From: Actinomycetota bacterium | Lineage (GTDB): Bacteria; Actinomycetota; Thermoleophilia; Solirubrobacterales; JBBDJG01 | Direction: 5' to 3' | NCBI GenBank assembly: GCA_046725795.1 | Contig: JBKOZI010000020.1 | Span: forward strand, 1-45,221 | Length of the DNA: 45,221 nt | Part shown: positions 5,848 through 34,513 of the stretch, in pieces | How positions within the stretch are numbered: position 1 is the stretch's first letter | Layout of the letters: every line of letters starts with the position of its first letter | Program-made: the position numbers and the translations under genes | The notes under the pieces: model-generated | Databases searched by the model: none | The model's input: the letters and a program-made list of their open reading frames with translations, nothing else | What the model was told of the DNA's origin: nothing

Positions 5848-5893
5848 GATGACGCGAGAAAAAAGTTCCGCAAATGATTCACGAAACCGGCTC

Positions 5894-5910
5894 GACCTCC
5901 CCAGGAGGTC
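5894..5910 (-). terminator. Hairpin downstream of pyrD (GACCTCC-TGG-GGAGGTC), a possible operon terminator
   Basis: 7-bp stem, 20 nt after the pyrD stop. Only a weak T-rich tail (GGTTTCGTG) follows, so it is weak. Confidence 0.35.
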
Positions 5911-5929
5911 TAGACGCCTCGAGGCTGCT

Positions 5930-6886
5930 TCACTTTTGGGCTGCAATTACAGCGCTTTTGGGCGCAAGGTGCCCGGCCCCAACGGCGTCCTTGACCTGCG
6001 CGACACCGCATCTCGACAGCAGCTCCGCAAGCTCGTCGCGCACGCGCTCGGCGGCTGCCGGGTCGCGAAAACTCTCGGTTCCGACGGCCACCGCGGTCGC
6101 TCCGGCGGCCATGAAGTCGAGCGCGTCGCGGCCTGAACGGACCCCGCCCATGCCGACCACGGGCAGGGTTGTGCGTGATGCCACGGCGTGAACCTGCTCG
6201 AGCGCGACCGCCCTCACCGCGGGCCCCGAGAGACCCCCGCTGCCGGCACCGAGCCACGGCCGCCCCGTCCCCGGATCGACGGCCATGCTTCGCAGCGTGT
6301 TGATCAGCGAGAGCGCGTCGGCACCGGCTTGCTCGGCCGCTGCGGCGACCGCCCCGACGTCGTTCGCGTTCGGGGTGAGCTTCACGATCAGCGGCTTCGG
6401 GGTGAGGGGCCGGAGGCGCTGCACGAGTGCGAGCGTCTCGTGCGGCTCGGCTCCCATCACGCAGCCGGACTTGACGTTCGGGCAAGAGACGTTGAGCTCG
6501 AGCGCGGCGACGCCTGCCTCGGCTGCGACCACCTCGACCAGCCGCGCGAACTCCTCGTGACCGAAGCCGGCGACGGAGACGACGAGCGGCACCGGGAGCG
6601 TCTCGAGCTGGGGCAGGTCGTGGGCGAGGAACCCCTCAAGGCCCTTGTTCGGCAGCCCGATCGAGTTGATCAGGCCGGCGGGAGCCTCCCACAGCCGTGG
6701 GGGCGGGTTCCCGCCCCGGGGTTCGATCGTGATGGTCTTGGAGACAAAGGCGGAGAACGGGAACAGCCGGCGCAGCTCCGAACCGAAGGTGCGCAGCGCC
6801 GCGATCGCGTCGAAGGTCCCGGAGCCGTTCAGGACGGGGTGGGCGAGCTCGAGACCGGCGAGCTCGGTGGAGAGGTCGGGGGCCAA
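5930..6886 (-). CDS. pyrD: Dihydroorotate dehydrogenase, class 1B catalytic subunit
   Basis: LAGLELAHPVLNGSGTF, LINSIGLPNKG, NVSCPN, GGLSGPA and VGMGGV motifs. The start is ambiguous: TTG 6886 is preferred, TTG 6910 or CTG 6898 are possible. The track start at 7105 overlaps pyrK. Confidence 0.9.
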   Translation of the reverse strand: MAPDLSTELAGLELAHPVLNGSGTFDAIAALRTFGSELRRLFPFSAFVSKTITIEPRGGNPPPRLWEAPAGLINSIGLPNKGLEGFLAHDLPQLETLPVPLVVSVAGFGHEEFARLVEVVAAEAGVAALELNVSCPNVKSGCVMGAEPHETLALVQRLRPLTPKPLIVKLTPNANDVGAVAAAAEQAGADALSLINTLRSMAVDPGTGRPWLGAGSGGLSGPAVRAVALEQVHAVASRTTLPVVGMGGVRSGRDALDFMAAGATAVAVGTESFRDPAAAERVRDELAELLSRCGVAQVKDAVGAGHLAPKSAVIAAQK

Positions 6887-6894
6887 GTGAGACG

Positions 6895-7709
6895 TCAGCG
6901 TTCCAGCCAAAACTCGTCCAGTTCCGCGGCCGCGAGCACCGGGCCGTCCACGCAGATCCGCCGGTAGCCGCTCCGCGTCAGCACCACGCACCCGAAGCAC
7001 GCTCCAAAGCCGCACGCCATCGCCTCCTCGAGCGCGAGCTGCGCGGTGACCGACCGCTCCACGCACAGCTGCCGCACCCGTTCGAGCATCGCGGGCGGGC
7101 CGCATGCGTAGACCGTCGCGTCTTCCTGGAGCGCTGCGGAGAGGAGATCGGTCACAAGCCCGTGGTGCCCGATCGAGCCGTCATCGGTCGCCAGCGCGAC
7201 GCCCGGCCCGACCAGGGCAGCCGACTGCGCGTGAGCGGCGGAGCGAAATCCCATCAACACATGCGGCTCGCGGCCGGCCTCGCGAAGCGACTCCGCGAGG
7301 ATCACGAGCGGCGCAAGGCCCACCCCGCCGCCGACCAGGAGCGGGCGCGCGATTCCCTCGGGCATCGCGAAACCAATCCCGAGCGGCCCCACGAGCCAGA
7401 GCTGCTCGCCGGGCTCGAGCTCTGCAAGCCGTGCCGTCCCCGGCCCGATCGCGTCGACGAGGAAGCCAAGCCGCTCTCCGCGGACGCGGCAGACCGAGAA
7501 CGCGCGCGCCAGATGGGGGCGTCCGTCCTCCCCGCCCCAGTGGCGCGCGGCCGCGAGCATGTAGAACTGCCCCGGGAGCGGCGTCGGGCCACTGGGATCC
7601 GCCGCCTCGACCAGCCGGTAGAGGCCGGAGGGCTCGTTCGAGACCACCTCGCAGCGCCGCCGCCCGAAAGGCGCGACCGTTCGCCGGGCGGCTTCTACCG
7701 CCTTCAACG

Positions 7710-21210: not shown

Positions 21211-21283
21211 GCGCGCATAGCTCAGTGGATAGAGCGCTGGCCTCCGGAGCCAGAGGTCGCAGGTTCGAATCCTGCTGCGCGCG
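21211..21283 (+). tRNA. tRNA-Arg (anticodon CCG), 73 nt, CCA not encoded
   Basis: Folded by hand. Acceptor GCGCGCA/TGCGCGC, D stem GCTC/GAGC, anticodon stem CTGGC/GCCAG with loop CTCCGGA, variable AGGTC, T arm GCAGG-TTCGAAT-CCTGC, discriminator G. Confidence 0.95.
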
Positions 21284-25197: not shown

Positions 25198-25965
25198 GTG
25201 GTGCGACGCTCGGGTATCAATGAAAGCGTCCACCTGAAGCCTGTCCACATCGGCTGCTCGGGCTGGAACTACGCCCACTGGCGCGAGGTCGTCTACCCGA
25301 AGGGGCTACCGCAGAAGCGCTGGCTCGAGCACTACGCGACGCTGTTCGGCACGGTCGAGATCAACAGCACCTTCTACCGGCTGCCCAAACGCTCGGCGGT
25401 GGCGGGATGGGCCGAGCGCAGCCCGCCCGGCTTTCTGTTCGCGGTCAAGGCGAGCCGCTACCTGACGCACATCAAGCGGTTGACCGAGATGCGCAGCGGC
25501 ATCGAGCTGTTCTACGAGCGGATCGAGCCGCTGATCGAGGCGGGAAAGCTTGGCCCGGTGCTCTGGCAGCTCCCGCCGAGCTTCCGGCGCGACGACGAGC
25601 GCCTCGCGTCCGCGCTCGCCGAGCTCCCCGCGGGACACCACGCTTTCGAGTTCCGGCACGAGAGCTGGTTCGTGCCCGGGGTCTACGAGCTGCTCCGGAG
25701 CCACGGCGTTGCGCTCGTGATCGGCGACACGCCCCAACGCCGCTTTCAGAGCCATGAGCTCACGGCCGACTGGACCTTCGTGCGCCATCACTATGGGTCG
25801 CGCGGGCGTAACGGCAACTACTCCGACCGCGAGCTCGCCGAGTGGGCTGAGCGGATCCGAGAATGGCGCAAGAAGGTTGAGGTGTACGCCTACTTCAACA
25901 ACGACTGGAACGGCTTCGCGGTGCGCAACGGGCTCGCACTCAAGCGCCTTCTAGAGCTTCGGTAG
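25198..25965 (+). CDS. DUF72 (YecE/UPF0759) family protein
   Basis: HIGCSGWNYAHWREVVYP...YATLFGTVEINSTFYRLP...YAYFNND. The start is taken at GTG 25198 or 25201. The track ORF start at 24697 is spurious. Confidence 0.85.
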   Translation: MVRRSGINESVHLKPVHIGCSGWNYAHWREVVYPKGLPQKRWLEHYATLFGTVEINSTFYRLPKRSAVAGWAERSPPGFLFAVKASRYLTHIKRLTEMRSGIELFYERIEPLIEAGKLGPVLWQLPPSFRRDDERLASALAELPAGHHAFEFRHESWFVPGVYELLRSHGVALVIGDTPQRRFQSHELTADWTFVRHHYGSRGRNGNYSDRELAEWAERIREWRKKVEVYAYFNNDWNGFAVRNGLALKRLLELR

Positions 25966-26862
25966 CTTCTGCTTCTGGTCGAGCACCGGCGCGAACAGGT
26001 CGCCGTGCTGCTCGACGCGGTTGACTACTGCGTCGGCCTCGAACACGAGCGGCTCGGCCCTTCCAGTCTCCAGCGCCTCCTCGACCTCGTCCCACCCGAC
26101 AGGCATGGAGACCGTCGGGCGCTCCCGTGCCCGAAGGGAGTACACGCACACGGTGGTCTTGTGATCGTCGTTCTGGCTCCAGTCCACAAATACCTTGCCG
26201 CCTCGGATCGATTTCTTCATGCTCGACACGACCAGGTCGGGAATCTGCTTCTCGAGCAGCATCGCGATCGCGTGCGCGAAAGGCTTCGTCTCGTCGTATG
26301 TGACCGGGGTGTTCAGCGGCACGTAGACCTGGAGGCCCTTCGATCCCGAGGTCTTCGCATAGCAGTCCAGCCCGAGGCCCTTGAAGAGGTCCCGCAGCGC
26401 GATCCCGACCCGCGTGCACTCGACGATCGTGGCCGGCTCGCCGGGATCGAGGTCGAACACCAGCATCGTCGGGCGCATGATGTCCTTCGCACGCGAGAGC
26501 GACGTGTGCAGCTCCAGGTCGGCGAGGTTGGCAAGCCAGATCAGGGTCGCGAGGTCGTTCGCAAGGCAGTAGTGGATCTCGCGCTTGTTCCGCACGGTGA
26601 CGGTTTGGATCCAGTCCGGCCGGTAGGACGGACACTGCTTCTCGTAGAAGAACTGGCCCTCGACCCCGTCCGGGTAGCGCTTGAGCGTCAGCGGCCGGTC
26701 GCGCAGGTGAGGAAGCAGCGCCGGGGCGACGCGCCGGTAGTAGTCGATCACCTGGCCCTTCGTGAAGCCGACGGCCGGGTAGAAGACCTTGTCGAGGTTG
26801 GAGAGCTTGAGGCGGCGGCGGTCGACTTCCACCTCGACGGCCTTTGCGGCCTTTTGCGTCAA
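25951..26862 (-). CDS. ligD: NHEJ DNA polymerase/primase domain protein (stand-alone LigD PolDom)
   Basis: LSNLDKVFYP, RYPDGVEGQFFYEK, VFDLDPG and SGSKGLQVYVPL. The TTG start overlaps the ku stop (TTGA). Confidence 0.92.
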   Translation of the reverse strand: MTQKAAKAVEVEVDRRRLKLSNLDKVFYPAVGFTKGQVIDYYRRVAPALLPHLRDRPLTLKRYPDGVEGQFFYEKQCPSYRPDWIQTVTVRNKREIHYCLANDLATLIWLANLADLELHTSLSRAKDIMRPTMLVFDLDPGEPATIVECTRVGIALRDLFKGLGLDCYAKTSGSKGLQVYVPLNTPVTYDETKPFAHAIAMLLEKQIPDLVVSSMKKSIRGGKVFVDWSQNDDHKTTVCVYSLRARERPTVSMPVGWDEVEEALETGRAEPLVFEADAVVNRVEQHGDLFAPVLDQKQKLPKL

Positions 26863-27746
26863 GCGCGCGTCTTGGCCCTGGGCTTCTTCGTGGTCGTGCG
26901 CTTCGCGGCGGGCTTCTTCTTCGGAGCGGCCTTCTTGGCGCCGTTCGCGCCCGCGGCTACCTTCTTTCCGCCCTTGGCGGCGGAGAGGGACGCCTCGAGT
27001 GCGGCCATCAGGTCGGGCACCGCAGTCGGGGCCTCGGGCTCGGGCGTGATCGCGACCTCCTGGCCCTCGGCCTTCCGCTCGATCAGGTCGAGCACGCGCT
27101 CGCGGTACTCGTCGTGGTACTTGGTCGGCTCGAAGTCGGTCGCAAGCGACTCGATCAGCTGCCGCGCCATGTCGACTTCGCGTTCGGTTGCGCGCGTGTC
27201 CTCGTCCGGGAGCTCGTCGATGTCGTTCGGGTCGATCAGCTCGTCCGCGAACAGCATCGTCTCCATCGTGAGCACGTCGCCCGCCGGCCGGATCGCCGTC
27301 AGGTACTCCTTGGAGCGGATCACGACGCGCGCGATCGCGACTTTGTTCGTCTCCTTCAAAGCCTCGAGCAGGAGCTTGTAGGGCTTGGTCGCGCCGGTGT
27401 CGGGCGCGAGGTAGTACGGGTGCTCGTAGAAGAGCGGGTCGATCTCGTCGAGGTCGACGAAGTCCTCGATGTCGATCGTGCGCGTCTTCTTCGGGTCGAG
27501 CGCCTCGAGCTCCTCCGGCGTGATCACGACGTACCGGCCCGGGCTGATCTCGTACCCCTTGACGATCTCCTCGTAGGGAACCTCAATGTCCTCGTCCCCG
27601 CAGAACCGCTTGAGCTGGATCCGCGAGTTGTCCTTCTCGTGCAACTGGTTGAACCGCACGGTCTTCTTCGAAACCGCGCTGTAGAGCTTCACGGGCACGT
27701 TCACGAGCCCGAAGCTGATTGCGCCCCTCCAGATCGATCTAGCCAT
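26859..27746 (-). CDS. ku: Ku protein (NHEJ DNA-end binding) with a Lys-rich C-terminal tail
   Basis: MARSIWRGAISFGLVNVPVKLYSA and YYLAPD. The tail is KKVAAGANGAKKAAPKKKPAAKRTTTKKPRAK. Confidence 0.95.
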   Translation of the reverse strand: MARSIWRGAISFGLVNVPVKLYSAVSKKTVRFNQLHEKDNSRIQLKRFCGDEDIEVPYEEIVKGYEISPGRYVVITPEELEALDPKKTRTIDIEDFVDLDEIDPLFYEHPYYLAPDTGATKPYKLLLEALKETNKVAIARVVIRSKEYLTAIRPAGDVLTMETMLFADELIDPNDIDELPDEDTRATEREVDMARQLIESLATDFEPTKYHDEYRERVLDLIERKAEGQEVAITPEPEAPTAVPDLMAALEASLSAAKGGKKVAAGANGAKKAAPKKKPAAKRTTTKKPRAKTRA

Positions 27747-27817
27747 CGTTCAAGTTCACCTCTGCCTTTGGATACTTCATTAGACCTTCCTGCTGGTCTT
27801 TTCTAATCGGCATTCGT

Positions 27818-29293
27818 CTATGCATCGACGTCGCCCTCAATCCCTTCAAATATGACATCTCGCGGATCTTTGTCGTCCCTGATGCCCTTGAATGAAGGCT
27901 GCCTGAGCGTGCGGGCGCGGGTCCAGCCCCTGAATTCGACCTCGACCACCACTCGCGGCTCGACGAAGATCGTCCCCTTGGGCGGCTGGCGCCCGTCGAA
28001 GGGGCTCTTGTCCGTTCGGAGCGGCTCGAGCAGCTCCTGCAGCTCCTCGAGCATGCGCGCCGTGAATCCCGTTCCGACGTTGCCGGCGTACTTCAGGCGC
28101 TGCGGCTCTCCATGCGTCTCGACCTCGGCGGGCGTCCTGTCGTAGTAGCCGACCGCGAGGGACCCGATTCGCTCCGTGCGCGATCCCTGACCCGGGAGCC
28201 AGCCCCCCACGACGAGCTCCTGGCTCATGTGGTTCTTGATCTTCAGCCAGGCCCCGCTGCGGCTGCCCGGCTCGTACCGGCTGTCGAGTCTCTTCGCGAC
28301 CACGCCCTCGAGCCCCCGGTCGGCGCTCGCCCTCAACATCGCCTCGCCGTCGCCCACGTGGTAGCTCGGCGTGCGCCAGTTCGGGCCTTCGAGCGAGAGC
28401 TCCTCGAGCCGCCGGCGGCGCTCGGTGTAGGGCAGCGCCATCGTCAGGCGCCCTTCGAGCCAGAGCACATCGAAGATCATGTAGACGACCGGGGTGTCGG
28501 CCATGCGGCGCCGGATCGTCGCCTCGGAGGTCACGTGCATCCGCGGCTGAAGGCGCTGGAAGTCGGGACGACCCTGCTCGTCGAACGCGACGATCTCGCC
28601 GTCGAGCACGGCGCGCCGGGAGCCGAGCTCCCGCCCGAGCTTGCGCAGCTCGGGGTATTGCCTCGTGACATCGCGCAGGTTGCGGCTCTCGAGCCGGATG
28701 CGCCCCTCTTCGCAGTACGCGATCGCGCGGACCCCGTCCCACTTGACCTCGAAGCCGTAGTCCTGGTCGTTGCGCGGAAGACGGGAGAGGCGCGCCATCA
28801 TCGGGACGACGTGCTCGGGCATCGGATCCTCGCCCGGGTCCGCGGGTGGATCCATGCGGTGGATCATCCAGTTCTTGCCCTTGGTCTGGAACAGCACGTA
28901 CTTGCCCTCGAGGCGCTCGCCGTGGAAGGTCACGATCACCTCGTCGTCGCGCCACTTCTCGCACTCGTACGTGCCCTGGTCCCAGATCTTCACCTCGCCG
29001 GCCCCGTACTCGCCCTCGGGGATCTCGCCGGCGAAGTCGATGTAGTCCAGCGGATGGTCCTCGACGTGGACCGCGAGGTGGTTGCGTTTCGGATCTGTCG
29101 GGATCCCCTTGGGGATGGCCCACGACACCAGCACCCCGTCCCGCTCCAGCCTCAGGTCCCAGTGCAGGCTCCGCGCGTGGTGCTCCTGGACGACGAAGCG
29201 CTCGCCGCGCTTGCGCCGCCGGCCGTCTCCGGCCGGCTCCGCGGTCTTCCGGAAGTCTCGCTTCCGCTTGTATTCGCTTAGCTTCTGGGTCAC
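27818..29293 (-). CDS. ligD: ATP-dependent DNA ligase LigD, a fusion of the 3'-phosphoesterase and ligase domains
   Basis: The PE domain has FVVQEHHARSLHWDLRLE. The ligase has motif I EVKWDGVR and an OB domain. The GTG start overlaps the upstream stop (GTGA). Confidence 0.93.
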   Translation of the reverse strand: MTQKLSEYKRKRDFRKTAEPAGDGRRRKRGERFVVQEHHARSLHWDLRLERDGVLVSWAIPKGIPTDPKRNHLAVHVEDHPLDYIDFAGEIPEGEYGAGEVKIWDQGTYECEKWRDDEVIVTFHGERLEGKYVLFQTKGKNWMIHRMDPPADPGEDPMPEHVVPMMARLSRLPRNDQDYGFEVKWDGVRAIAYCEEGRIRLESRNLRDVTRQYPELRKLGRELGSRRAVLDGEIVAFDEQGRPDFQRLQPRMHVTSEATIRRRMADTPVVYMIFDVLWLEGRLTMALPYTERRRRLEELSLEGPNWRTPSYHVGDGEAMLRASADRGLEGVVAKRLDSRYEPGSRSGAWLKIKNHMSQELVVGGWLPGQGSRTERIGSLAVGYYDRTPAEVETHGEPQRLKYAGNVGTGFTARMLEELQELLEPLRTDKSPFDGRQPPKGTIFVEPRVVVEVEFRGWTRARTLRQPSFKGIRDDKDPRDVIFEGIEGDVDA

Positions 29294-31820: not shown

Positions 31821-32261
31821 GTGCGGCGCTTCCAGGACGGCTTCCTCGCCGCGCTTGCCATACATCCGCCCACAGAGGCGGCGGTCGCCGCGGCCCTCTG
31901 GACTCCCCGCTTCGCCGACTCGCACCCGCCGGACGCCGCGTTGCTCCTCCAGTACCGCCGCGAGGACCTCCTCCGCTCCCCGATCACCGATCTCGACCTC
32001 TTCGAGCAGGTCGAGGGGTTGAACGATCCGGTCGAGAAGGCGCTCCGGCGGCTCGCCGGCCGGCTGTACGGCGCCGTTGGCCGGGCAGGCTACGAGACCG
32101 TGACGCTCGCCGTCGTCGACCTACCGGTCGGAGCCGTGCGCAGGTACCTGAGCCGCCGAGCACCGCTGCCCGAGGCGCTCGCCACCCAACTCGAGGCAGC
32201 CGTCAGAGCGGCGCTCGCCGCCGGCCCTAAGCGCCGCCGGCGACGGCCGGGAGAATCGTGA
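31821..32261 (+). CDS. Hypothetical protein
   Basis: High GC3 is consistent with coding. I recognise no motif. The 3' end overlaps the convergent moaD-like gene by 35 nt. Confidence 0.4.
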   Translation: MRRFQDGFLAALAIHPPTEAAVAAALWTPRFADSHPPDAALLLQYRREDLLRSPITDLDLFEQVEGLNDPVEKALRRLAGRLYGAVGRAGYETVTLAVVDLPVGAVRRYLSRRAPLPEALATQLEAAVRAALAAGPKRRRRRPGES

Positions 32262-32502
32262 TCTCGTCGCCGTCGCTCACCGGCGTCTCGAGACCCTGGC
32301 CGAACCGAATGTCCTCGCCGCCCACGTAGACGTTCACGAAGCGGCGCAGCTCGCCGTCCTCGGTGATGCGGTCACGAAGGCCGTCGTAGCGCTGGTAGAG
32401 CGCGTCGAGGGCCTCCCCCACCGACGATCCCTCGACCTGCGTCTCCGCCTCGTTCCCGGTCAGGGTTCGAAGCTGGGCCGGAATCTTGATCGTCACGCCC
32501 AC
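32227..32502 (-). CDS. MoaD/ThiS-family sulfur-carrier protein (CysO/MetO-like), C-terminus ...AGGA
   Basis: TIKIPAQLRTLTGNEAETQVEGSSVGEALDAL...VNVYVGGEDIRF...VSDGDEITILPAVAGGA. The GTG start (32502 or 32496) follows AAGGAA, 10 nt after the ThrC-like stop. Confidence 0.85.
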   Translation of the reverse strand: MGVTIKIPAQLRTLTGNEAETQVEGSSVGEALDALYQRYDGLRDRITEDGELRRFVNVYVGGEDIRFGQGLETPVSDGDEITILPAVAGGA

Positions 32503-32512
32503 AGATGGTTCC

Positions 32513-33748
32513 TTAGGCGATTTGCGCGGGCTCCAGCACGGACTCCGCAAAGCTCGCCGCGCTCGGCTCGACCTGCACAACGTTGACGATGCCGCGCACC
32601 GCATCGAGCGTCTTCAGGCCTTCGCCGGTGATCACCAGCACGACGCGCTCATCGGGACCGATGTCCCCTCGCGCGGCGAGCTTGCTCAACACGGCTGTGG
32701 TCACGCCGCCTGCGGTCTCGGTGAAGATGCCCGTCGTCTCCGCGAGCAGGCGAATGCCCTCGACCACCTCCTCGTCCGTCACGGCGTCGATCGATCCGCC
32801 GGTGCGACGCGCCAGGTCGAGCGCGAACACGCCGTCGGCTGGATTCCCGATTGCAAGCGATTTTGCAATCGTCTCCGGCTTGACCGGCCGGCAGATGTCC
32901 TGGCCCGCCGCGAACGCCTGGGCGACCGGCGAGCAGCCCTCTGCCTGGGCGCCGTTGAAGGTCGGGAGGTCGCCCTCCAGGATTCCGACCTCGAGCCACT
33001 CCTCGAACCCACGAGCGATCCTCGTGAAGAGGGAGCCCGACGCGACCGGCACGACCACGCGGTCCGGCAGCTCGAACCCGAGCTGCTCGGCGATCTCGAA
33101 GCCGAGCGTCTTCGAGCCCTCGGCGTAGTAGGGGCGGAGGTTCACATTGACGAACGCCCATGGCTGCTCCGCCGACAGCTCCGTGCAGAGGCGGTTCACG
33201 TCGTCGTAGTTGCCCTCGACCGCGACGAGGCGCGTGCCGTAGACGCCGGTCGCGAGGATCTTCTGCTCCTCGAGGTCGGCGGGCACGAACACGTAGGAAT
33301 CGAGGCCGGCGGCGGCCGCATGCGCGGCGACGGCGTTCGCGAGATTCCCGGTCGAGGCGCACGCGACAACCTCGTAGCCGAGCTCCTTGGCCTTGGCGAT
33401 CGCGACGTTCACGACCCGGTCCTTGAAGGAGTGGGTGGGGTTCGCGGCGTCGTTTTTCACGTAGACCTCGCCGATGCCGAGCCGCTCGGCGAGCTGCTCC
33501 GAGCGAACGAGCGGCGTGAAGCCGGCGTCGAGCGCCGTCCTGGGACGCCGCGCGAAGGGCAGGAAGTCCGCGTAGCGCCAGATCGAGGGCGGCCCGGCTT
33601 GGATCTTTCGCCGGAGCTCAGCCGGATCGTCGAGCGCCGAATGGTCGTAGCTGACCTCGAGCGGTCCGAAGCACTGTTCGCATACGTAGCTCGCATCGAG
33701 CTCGTACGTTGAGTGGCATTCCTTACATTGCAGTGCTTCTGCGGGCAT
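32513..33748 (-). CDS. Threonine-synthase-family PLP enzyme with an N-terminal zinc ribbon (ThrC paralog / MetM-like)
   Basis: CKECHSTYELDASYVCEQC ribbon, PLP lysine motif NPTHSFKDR and ACASTGN. ATG at 33748 follows AAGGAGACAAAG. The track start at 33823 lies inside the riboswitch. Confidence 0.93.
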   Translation of the reverse strand: MPAEALQCKECHSTYELDASYVCEQCFGPLEVSYDHSALDDPAELRRKIQAGPPSIWRYADFLPFARRPRTALDAGFTPLVRSEQLAERLGIGEVYVKNDAANPTHSFKDRVVNVAIAKAKELGYEVVACASTGNLANAVAAHAAAAGLDSYVFVPADLEEQKILATGVYGTRLVAVEGNYDDVNRLCTELSAEQPWAFVNVNLRPYYAEGSKTLGFEIAEQLGFELPDRVVVPVASGSLFTRIARGFEEWLEVGILEGDLPTFNGAQAEGCSPVAQAFAAGQDICRPVKPETIAKSLAIGNPADGVFALDLARRTGGSIDAVTDEEVVEGIRLLAETTGIFTETAGGVTTAVLSKLAARGDIGPDERVVLVITGEGLKTLDAVRGIVNVVQVEPSAASFAESVLEPAQIA

Positions 33749-33765
33749 CTTTGTCTCCTTAAATG

Positions 33766-33793
33766 AAAAACCTCTGCCCGGGTGTGGCAGAGG
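33766..33793 (-). terminator. Intrinsic terminator forming the expression platform of the SAM riboswitch
   Basis: The minus strand reads CCTCTGCC-ACACCCG-GGCAGAGG followed by TTTTT, 18 nt upstream of the start codon. Confidence 0.8.
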
Positions 33794-33814
33794 TCTCATT
33801 GGGAGATGATCCCT

Positions 33815-33948
33815 CCCCCACATCTCCCAGGCTTGAACATGGAGCCTGCTGGAATTGGCACCGTTTCTCGCCGCGGGAAATTCCCTTGGCTCAGAATGGT
33901 TGCCGGGGCTTCAAAGGGCCAGTCCCTCCACCCCTCTGGATGCAAGAG
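33815..33948 (-). promoter_or_regulatory. SAM-I (S-box) riboswitch aptamer
   Basis: The minus strand reads CUCUUGCAUCCAGAGGGGUGGAGGGACUGGCCCUUUGAAGCCCCGGCAACC...GGUGCCAAUUCCAGCAGG...CCUGGGAGAUG. All conserved SAM-I cores are present: GGUGGAGGGACUGGCCC, GAAxCCCGGCAACC and GGUGCxAAUUCC. Confidence 0.9.
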
Positions 33949-33961
33949 CTATTGGCCGCGC

Positions 33962-33991
33962 ATTATACGCATGCGGCCGACGAATCGGCAA
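33962..33991 (-). promoter_or_regulatory. Candidate promoter for the riboswitch transcript: -35 TTGCCG, 18-nt spacer, -10 TATAAT
   Basis: The minus strand reads TTGCCGattcgtcggccgcatgcgTATAAT, about 13 nt upstream of the aptamer 5' end. Confidence 0.6.
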
Positions 33992-34027
33992 CGAGGCCCG
34001 GGGGCTGGTTTGTAGGATGCCTGCGCT

Positions 34028-34513
34028 TTGGCCGCTGAGCGACTCTGGGCCCCCTGGAGACTCGAGTACATCAAGGGCGACAAGTCAGACGACTGCATTT
34101 TCTGCACGAAGCCGCCGCTGGACGATGAGGAGGCGTTGATCGTCCGTCGCGGCGAGCGTTGCTTCGTGATGCTGAACGCCTACCCCTACACGAGCGGCCA
34201 CGTGATGGTCGCGCCCTACGCCCACACCCCCGACCTGGCGGTGCTGGATGAGGCCACCTCGCTCGAGCTCATGTCGCTCACACAGGAATCGCTTCGAGCG
34301 ATCGGCGAGGTGTATCGCCCGGAGGGCTTCAACGTGGGCGTGAACCTCGGCACCGTCGCGGGTGCCGGCGTCGCCGACCACGTGCACATGCACGTCGTGC
34401 CGCGCTGGGAGGGCGACACGAACTTCATGACCGCGCTCGCCGACACGCGTGTCCTGCCCGAGAGCCTCGTGGACACCCAACGAAACCTGAAGGAGGCGTT
34501 CGCGCGACTGTGA
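34028..34513 (+). CDS. HIT-family nucleotide hydrolase/transferase (Ap4A-phosphorylase-like)
   Basis: LWAPWRLEYIKG, CIFC and the histidine triad HVHMHVVPRW. The TTG start lies 9 nt after TAGGAT. Confidence 0.9.
   Translation: MAAERLWAPWRLEYIKGDKSDDCIFCTKPPLDDEEALIVRRGERCFVMLNAYPYTSGHVMVAPYAHTPDLAVLDEATSLELMSLTQESLRAIGEVYRPEGFNVGVNLGTVAGAGVADHVHMHVVPRWEGDTNFMTALADTRVLPESLVDTQRNLKEAFARL

Follow-up and report, generated by a model that had tools for sequence, protein, structure and literature searches.

Organization of the locus

We analyzed a 45,221-nucleotide (nt) stretch of contig JBKOZI010000020.1, hereafter the window, and describe a region at 32227-33991 in which a predicted S-adenosylmethionine (SAM)-sensing riboswitch precedes genes for a threonine synthase (ThrC)-like enzyme and a small sulfur carrier; all of its features lie on the minus strand. 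In the direction of transcription, a promoter-like sequence (33991-33962) is followed by a SAM-I (S-box) aptamer (33817-33946), an expression platform, a metM-like gene coding for a 411-amino acid (aa) enzyme of the ThrC family, dependent on pyridoxal phosphate (PLP) (32513-33748), and a metO-like gene coding for a 91-aa sulfur carrier of the ThiS/MoaD fold (32227-32502). The aptamer 3′ end is separated from the metM-like ATG by 68 nt, and the carrier gene starts at a GTG (32502) 10 nt past the enzyme stop codon. An initial annotation, made from the sequence alone, had proposed that these genes form a SAM-repressed, thiocarboxylate-dependent homocysteine system of the MetM/MetO type, and three results support this: the two genes are linked in 78 of 80 related loci, the aptamer is present in all 49 actinobacterial loci among these, and the enzyme belongs to a clade separate from threonine synthases. 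We conclude that the locus is probably the SAM-repressed metM-metO operon of a Solirubrobacterales-like (Thermoleophilia) actinobacterium, with a predicted role in homocysteine synthesis.

Every motif quoted by the initial annotation for a complete S-box aptamer is present, and the covariance-model comparison bears the identification out. Rfam model RF00162 matches the segment from P1 to P4 over its whole length (model positions 1-108 of 108) with 84.9 bits (E = 8.8e-19), the gathering cut-off being 44.4. P1 is formed by a 5′ strand at 33946-33939 and a 3′ strand at 33824-33817. Across 50 orthologous actinobacterial leaders (the 49 loci and the window), 94.1% of the cells in the aptamer helices are paired and 11 pairs have changed on both sides; none of 500 shuffles reached these values, and slid controls were 39-50% paired. 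These data support a SAM-I riboswitch for which SAM binding is predicted. The P4 hairpin is kept in the window aptamer (33851-33827). P4 is absent from eight of 12 aligned metM-leader aptamers (L001, L002, L023, L038, L046, L051, L062, and L076), and these still score best against RF00162.

Conservation of the operon

The relatives used throughout are the best 80 loci from a scan with one genome per species; they extend down to 58% identity, a point that lies above Streptomyces. Thermoleophilia contribute 38 of these loci, Acidimicrobiia and other Actinomycetota 11, and the remaining 31 are nearly all from cyanobacteria, so that with the window there are 39 Thermoleophilia leaders. A metO homologue lies directly 3′ of metM in 78 of the 80, and in the other two the contig ends before that position. 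The linkage spans Thermoleophilia, Acidimicrobiia, Actinomycetes, and cyanobacteria.

The riboswitch is distributed more narrowly. In an Rfam search of 14 loci, all 11 from actinobacteria had a SAM-I element directly before the gene and the three from cyanobacteria had none, and a covariance model built from the Rfam-detected aptamers of the relatives and then run on all 80 loci found one upstream of metM in 49/49 actinobacterial and 0/31 other loci. This split matches published statements, in which Streptomyces albulus metM is described with a SAM riboswitch upstream and the Microcystis gene without one, a metO-like gene being adjacent (PMC12172450); the occurrence of MetM homologues in cyanobacteria is noted there as well.

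Two cultured Actinomycetes were also examined. Nonomuraea gerenzanensis, found by a tblastn search of a plasmid collection in which its chromosome is filed as a plasmid, has the aptamer, metM, and a metO whose product ends in GG. Micromonospora coriariae (L081, LT607412.1) has the aptamer and metM at 5855-7700, with no ThiS-like open reading frame (ORF) downstream; its carrier must be encoded elsewhere or be common to another pathway.

The metM-like enzyme

The initial annotation's description of a 411-aa threonine-synthase-family enzyme with an N-terminal ribbon, opening behind AAGGAG-ATG, is confirmed. The start at ATG 33748 is backed by homologues, by the Shine-Dalgarno (SD) sequence, and by the alignment of the nearest leaders; a mechanical ORF list gave a 436-aa product from ATG 33823, a start that lies inside P1 and that we rejected, homologues and the SD favoring 33748. 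The ribbon consists of four cysteines (C8, C11, C23, and C26; CxxC...CxxC, 33671-33727) that show little or no variation across 83 MetM-like proteins. The lysine of the SFKDR motif (K109, codon 33422-33424), which we take to be the PLP-binding residue, is invariant in 83/83 and aligns with that of solved threonine synthases.

The protein matches PF00291 (PALP) with 255.5 bits, and its best solved relatives are the threonine synthases 6CGQ, 2ZSJ, 1UIM, and 2D1F, with alignments that start only at residue 52-56; the N-terminal ribbon segment of about 50 residues is absent from these four sequences. Membership in the CysK/CysM family was rejected (TIGR01139 cysK, 49.6 bits against a cut-off of 350.95), as was identity as a cysteate synthase (TIGR03844, 84 bits against 325), though the match to the latter model extends over the N-terminal region too. 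Identity to the closest homologues is 85-91%; most of these are from soil-type metagenomes, with Solirubrobacterales metagenome-assembled genomes among them; all of those that are named are labelled threonine synthase.

In a neighbor-joining tree of the catalytic core, with the four solved threonine synthases as outgroup, the window enzyme falls inside the carrier-linked clade and outside the threonine synthases, to which it is 34-40% identical. Within that clade, it shares 72-81% identity with the Thermoleophilia proteins, 64-67% with those of Acidimicrobiia, 61-64% with the cyanobacterial ones, 57% with Micromonospora, and 55% with Nonomuraea; identity to Bacillus subtilis ThrC is 38%. Comparison of the 83 clade members with the four solved threonine synthases gives a residue signature. 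The residue after STGN is Leu (L136) in the MetM-like clade and Thr in threonine synthases; the SxNPxR segment of ThrC becomes N(L/M)RPYY, with R205 and Y208 in place of Asn and Arg; and the GNAGN loop is replaced by an ASGSL-type loop. Residue 272 is Cys rather than Ala or Ser, residue 296 is Lys rather than Thr, and residues 305-306 are Asp-Gly rather than Ser-Trp. Several of the replaced threonine-synthase residues presumably make contact with the phosphate, of substrate or product, by which the addition of water is directed. The conversion of a water-adding enzyme into one that takes a protein thiocarboxylate may have come about through L136, R205, Y208, C272, the ASGSL loop, and the N-terminal zinc ribbon. 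The signature could serve directly as an annotation rule separating MetM from ThrC.

Several observations weigh against assigning a MetM function. TIGR00260 (thrC) matches with 300.9 bits, well over its cut-off of 167.1, and a name given on sequence alone would be ThrC. The Microcystis homologue, which is 51.6% identical to MetM, is reported to have threonine deaminase activity and no clear MetM activity in vitro (PMC12172450). The case for orthology to S. albulus MetM/MetO is indirect, resting on shared context and intermediate homologues. Finally, the Pfam-scanned ORFs of the 45-kb window include no JAMM/Mec peptidase, ThiF/MoeZ-type E1, thrB, canonical thrC, or metX/metY, and the same partner genes were not found in the syntenic 21-kb locus L083 (within 10 kb).

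The TIGR00260 score, the threonine synthase names of all close database relatives, the Microcystis deaminase, and the lack of another thrC in the window would each fit an enzyme that is an ordinary threonine synthase, or a threonine synthase/deaminase, whose chemistry has nothing to do with the adjacent carrier and riboswitch. We consider this extremely unlikely. Control by SAM-I and linkage to the carrier both persist from class to class, and the enzyme belongs to a clade apart from solved threonine synthases. The more specific threonine-synthase model NF006050 falls below its cut-off (282.8 against 303), as do other threonine-synthase equivalogs, and the motif changes STGN-T to L, GNAGN to ASGSL, and NPxR to RPYY affect what we take to include the phosphate-binding residues of ThrC. 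As for the missing thrC, a 45-kb window is too small for such an absence to inform on the genome.

The metO-like carrier

The carrier matches PF02597 (ThiS, 68.6 bits), NF041918 (74.3 bits), and NCBIfam SAMP1/MoaD models. Among solved structures, those nearest to it are 4n6e_B (87.8 bits) and, over the full length, Mycobacterium tuberculosis CysO (3dwg_C, deposited as cfp10A; 78.3 bits), the closest one whose role is known. The initial annotation described a 91-aa ubiquitin-fold GG protein beginning 10 nt after the enzyme gene, and the size, fold, and spacing stand; the C-terminus, however, is not GG but GG-Ala (...LPAVAGG-A), with the GG codons at 32238-32233, Ala at 32232-32230, and the stop codon at 32229-32227. 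GG forms the exact C-terminus in 70 of 75 complete homologues, and the other five extend past it by one or two residues. Within the window lineage the ends are GGA (the window and L086), GGAV (L084), GGS (L087), and GG (L083). Residues beyond the GG would have to be removed before adenylation; the carrier of this lineage would then be a precursor with one or two residues beyond GG, and its proteolytic trimming could provide a second control point beside the riboswitch.

In the pathway that we propose, one Ala would be removed from MetO to expose Gly-Gly, which would then be adenylated and thiocarboxylated by an E1 that, like the peptidase, would be encoded outside the window. MetM would use the MetO thiocarboxylate to convert O-phosphohomoserine to homocysteine, the precursor of methionine and SAM, by analogy with the reaction of S. 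albulus MetM/MetO.

SAM-I control extends to some cysteine and sulfur genes. It is conceivable that the pair serves a different sulfur compound, either making cysteine from O-phosphoserine in the manner of CysM/CysO or supplying sulfur to a secondary metabolite or cofactor; the similarity of the carrier to CysO 3dwg_C (78 bits) and 4n6e_B (87.8 bits) and the presence in one relative of a MOSC-domain gene right after metO would be in keeping with this. We judge it very unlikely, because the enzyme is a member of the O-phosphohomoserine-binding ThrC family rather than of CysK/CysM (TIGR01139 49.6 against 351), the neighborhood consists of housekeeping genes with no biosynthetic cluster, and the same architecture has been experimentally assigned to homocysteine synthesis in S. 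albulus, according to published accounts. The MOSC-domain gene, related to Moco sulfurase, lies directly 3′ of metO in L083 (11577-12050); the window has none at that position.

Promoter and expression platform

The five-sequence alignment of nearest leaders comprises the window, the three nearest relatives (L084, L086, and L087; 88-91% protein identity), and the slightly more distant L083. The promoter read by the initial annotation, TTGCCG-18 nt-TATAAT, is present at 33991-33962, and the promoter scan scored it at 10/12 matches; it is the sole sigma-70-like site across 32000-34300, where shuffled sequences average 0.2. The −10 hexamer TATAAT (33962-33967) is kept in four of the five aligned leaders (the window, L084, L086, and L087), and the −35-like hexamer TTGCCG (33986-33991) is weakly conserved in the nearest relatives. 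More widely, a TANNNT hexamer lies 8-30 nt, mainly 21-23 nt, 5′ of the aptamer in 32 of 38 sequences (37 Thermoleophilia loci and the window). Between the −10 box and P1, most Thermoleophilia metM leaders (L001-L038) have the motif ACATAGC(A/T)G, which in the window reads CCAATAGCT (33947-33955, minus strand); it may mark the transcription start or be a 5′ extension of P1.

Downstream of the aptamer lies a terminator-like hairpin made up of CCUCUGCC (33793-33786), the loop ACACCCG, and GGCAGAGG (33778-33771), followed by U5 (33770-33766), all as the initial annotation had it; a hairpin-plus-U-run scan assigned it −18.1 kcal/mol. The SD AAGGAG (33755-33760) is 6 nt 5′ of the ATG and invariant in 5/5 aligned leaders. 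Upstream of the hairpin, the segment CAUCUCCCAAUGA (33796-33808) is positioned as an anti-SD, its UCUCC pairing with GGAGA of the SD and its AAUGA with UCAUU. In the minimum-energy fold of the leader (33950-33735; −91.3 kcal/mol, z = −2.8), P1 is closed and the downstream helix runs from the 8-bp GC stem through AAUGA/UCAUU to UCUCC/GGAGA, leaving the SD paired in what would be the OFF fold.

An alternative pairing competes with P1 by recruiting its 3′ strand. The 5′ arm of this antiterminator, GCCUGGG followed by UGUGGGGGAGG (33812-33832), consists of the P4 and P1 3′ strands and the next 5 nt, and its 3′ arm, CCUCUGCCACA followed by CCCGGGC (33776-33793), of the terminator 5′ strand, the loop, and the first bases of the terminator 3′ strand. 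Folded with P1 left free, the platform has the antiterminator as its minimum-energy structure (−39.3 kcal/mol), and so has a nascent transcript whose 3′ end is at 33772. Its duplex alone has −22.6 kcal/mol, a value matched by four of 200 shuffles, and in relatives the duplex energies only modestly beat those of shuffled sequences, since a G-rich strand readily pairs with a C-rich one. Support for the antiterminator comes from position-specific compensating changes and not from energy: the relatives have GUGG/CCAC, GCGG/CCGC (L021), GUGAG/CUCGC (L028 and L032), and GUGGGG/CCCCAC (L025 to L033).

The initial annotation had pointed to a different alternative hairpin, GGGAGAUG (33828-33821) with CAUCUCCC (33808-33801), which does exist as an alternative pairing for CAUCUCCC but which we rejected as the antiterminator, since the terminator hairpin persists when it is enforced. 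Enforcing it gives −70.3 kcal/mol for the leader, against −91.3 unconstrained, and −34.9 against −39.3 for the platform. The hairpin is kept in L084, L086, and L087 and not in L083 or farther loci; at best it is an anti-anti-SD that frees the SD.

We propose that when SAM is plentiful, the bound aptamer would lock P1, and the CCUCUGCC/GGCAGAGG hairpin with its U5 would form and extend through AAUGA/UCAUU and UCUCC/GGAGA. Transcription would then tend to stop before the gene, and transcripts that read through would have the SD buried, so that transcription and translation would both be attenuated. At low SAM, the 3′ strands of P1 and P4 (GCCUGGG...UGUGGGGGAGG) would be released and pair with the 5′ half and loop of the terminator (CCUCUGCCACA...CCCGGGC), and the operon would be expressed.

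Two results speak against the transcriptional half of this mechanism. In the three nearest relatives, which keep the hairpin and the anti-SD helix, the U-run reads UUCUUC, and a consensus terminator scan did not list the hairpin at 33793-33766, presumably because a G-U/A-U extension of the stem consumes the U-run. With the U-run broken in the nearest relatives and the consensus scan silent, real termination is uncertain, and because the nearest leaders keep the anti-SD helix and the U-run varies, SD sequestration is the better-conserved half of the mechanism. L083 has a U7 run together with a different, compensating anti-SD helix, CUUCUUCGAC/GUUGAAGGAG.

These observations bring in the possibility that the riboswitch acts on translation only, perhaps with Rho-dependent polarity. 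The GC hairpin would then be a spacer joining the anti-SD UCUCC to the SD GGAGA, the U5 would be incidental, and the gene functions would be unchanged. The conserved hairpin and helix beside a broken U-run, the compensating changes in the SD helix of L083, and the failure of the consensus scan to flag the site all point in this direction; so do the 15 of 39 Thermoleophilia leaders and the 11/11 Acidimicrobiia and Actinomycetes loci that have no hairpin with at least four U, and the statement that direct translation attenuation is most frequent in Actinobacteria (PMC2258182). On the other side, the window has an 8-bp GC-rich stem and then UUUUUCAUUU, and runs of at least five T are rare in its 68% GC sequence (eight on both strands of the 45 kb, the terminator U5 being one of these). 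Moreover, 24 of the 39 Thermoleophilia leaders have a hairpin with at least four U, with U6 to U8 in several, and the antiterminator targets the core terminator stem and not the anti-SD, which would be needless in a purely translational switch. We regard translation-only control as less likely than not, and termination in the window leader, as far as can be judged from its sequence, as plausible.

Two more hairpin-plus-T-run sites occur in the window, at 2340-2346 and 5859-5864 (both minus strand), within or beside ORFs.

Diversity of expression platforms

The 50 metM leaders show three platform designs. In design (i), a hairpin is followed by at least four U; it is found in the 24 Thermoleophilia leaders just mentioned and in 0/11 Acidimicrobiia and Actinomycetes loci. 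In at least 15 of these leaders the terminator 3′ strand, GGAGG, doubles as the SD and lies 11-16 nt ahead of the AUG; the remaining ones, including the window, usually have an outer helix that pairs a separate SD or the start codon, and in L028 and L032 the outer helix ends short of the SD. In design (ii), there is no U-run and an anti-SD helix is present, for example GGGCUUC/GAAGGAGCCC. In design (iii), which characterizes most Acidimicrobiia and Actinomycetes loci, the 3′ strand of P1 contains the SD GAGGAG, with the start codon no more than about 10 nt further on. These designs match the categories of dual, translation, and direct translation attenuation, the last being most frequent in Actinobacteria (Barrick and Breaker 2007, PMC2258182).

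The initial annotation had called a terminator-type S-box unusual in a high-GC lineage. This holds for Actinomycetota generally but not within Thermoleophilia, where 24/39 leaders of this operon have one; the terminator-type platform is a lineage trait of Thermoleophilia and not an oddity of the window. With one aptamer-gene pair set on three platform designs, the leaders offer a compact natural series for following platform evolution by lineage.

Genomic surroundings

The window has 68% GC, and the neighbors of the operon are housekeeping genes: nusA, rimP, dtd, coaBC, gmk, pyr and car genes, and genes for CorA and HIT proteins, together with LigD/Ku, tRNA-Arg(CCG), phosphomannomutase, RelA, RecJ, and SecDF. 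The surroundings contain no biosynthetic cluster, and a syntenic 608-kb contig has the same neighbors. Converging on metO is a 146-aa ORF (31821-32261, plus strand) with a coding-like third-position GC content of 0.86 and no Pfam match, which overlaps the metO 3′ end by 35 nt. A complete set of nonhomologous end-joining genes lies at 25951-29293 (minus strand), consisting of a LigD primase-polymerase gene, Ku, and a gene for LigD phosphoesterase and ATP-dependent ligase. The tRNA-Arg gene (anticodon CCG; 21211-21283, plus strand) lies near two sulfotransferase-like genes and methyltransferase genes (17.8-23.8 kb).

Implications and comparison with known systems

If MetM replaces the threonine synthase label, the reconstruction of methionine synthesis changes for Thermoleophilia and Acidimicrobiia, which are represented here mostly by metagenome-assembled genomes. 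We suggest tentatively, as an extension that is less likely than not, that these two classes might obtain homocysteine chiefly or solely through MetM/MetO. For Acidimicrobium ferrooxidans, Price et al. (2018, PMC5764234) found no known homocysteine pathway. Eight Acidimicrobiia or other Actinomycetota loci (L046, L051, L060, L070, L072-L074, and L076) have the riboswitch-metM-metO operon, and this operon may be the route missing from A. ferrooxidans; were the pair indeed the main or sole route, it would fill that gap.

The closest known system is that of S. albulus NBRC 14147, for which Hasebe et al. (2024, Appl Environ Microbiol 90:e01247-24) report that MetM and MetO make homocysteine from O-phosphohomoserine; the initial annotation's mention of such a report in Streptomyces was correct (PMC12172450; 10.1101/2024.10.14.618325). 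A 2026 GapMind preprint (10.1101/2024.10.14.618325) lists MetO, Mec, MoeZ, and MetM as a thiocarboxylate pathway from O-phosphohomoserine, and states that MetM is often misannotated as threonine synthase and that Mec is needed for maturation of S. albulus MetO. As far as these sources describe it, the S. albulus system shares with the window a ThrC homologue beside a ThiS/MoaD-type carrier, a SAM riboswitch before metM, and a common threonine-synthase annotation. Both enzymes are distant from B. subtilis ThrC (33% identity for S. albulus MetM, 10.64898/2026.09.15.751699; 38% for the window protein), and the Mec-type carrier maturation reported there has its counterpart in the C-terminal trimming predicted for the window carrier. 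The differences are that the window host belongs to Thermoleophilia and not to Actinomycetes, and that the likeness is drawn without a direct sequence alignment. The platforms also differ: the window combines a terminator with SD sequestration, whereas the cultured Actinomycetes examined have the start codon about 10 nt past P1.

Among SAM-I riboswitches, the dual platforms of Barrick and Breaker (2007) likewise pair the SD in the terminator helix or by extension of it, but the AAGGAG of the window is separate, lies 3′ of the U-run, and is paired by an outer extension rather than by the stem.

The CysO/CysM/Mec system of M. tuberculosis (PDB 3DWG) resembles the window pair in its CysO-like carrier and in the predicted delivery of thiocarboxylate sulfur to a PLP enzyme acting on an O-phospho amino acid. 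The M. tuberculosis system also involves a JAMM hydrolase. The partner enzyme in the window, however, has the ThrC fold and not that of CysK/CysM, is predicted to convert O-phosphohomoserine to homocysteine, and is under SAM riboswitch control.

Wolinella succinogenes HcyS/HcyD/HcyF/MetY is likewise described as a protein-thiocarboxylate-dependent route to homocysteine and methionine (Krishnamoorthy and Begley 2011, via PMC5764234). It differs in its enzyme, MetY being an O-acetylhomoserine sulfhydrylase of PLP fold type I, and in a substrate that is an acyl- and not a phospho-homoserine. We take HcyS to carry an extra C-terminal Ala after GG that is trimmed by the metalloprotease HcyD, which would parallel the GG-Ala end of the window carrier.

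Compared with housekeeping ThrC (6CGQ, 2ZSJ, 1UIM, and 2D1F), the window enzyme has the same PLP scaffold of fold type II and the same lysine motif, SFKDR, and its substrate, O-phosphohomoserine, is probably shared as well; core identity is 34-40%. It differs in the 4-Cys ribbon, in L136, R205, Y208, ASGSL, and C272, in its carrier linkage, and in SAM control. Since the MetM/MetO system has been known since 2024, the novelty of the locus is the lower for it. The comparisons support well the view that it is a further example of that known system, found here in Thermoleophilia, and not a new kind of system.

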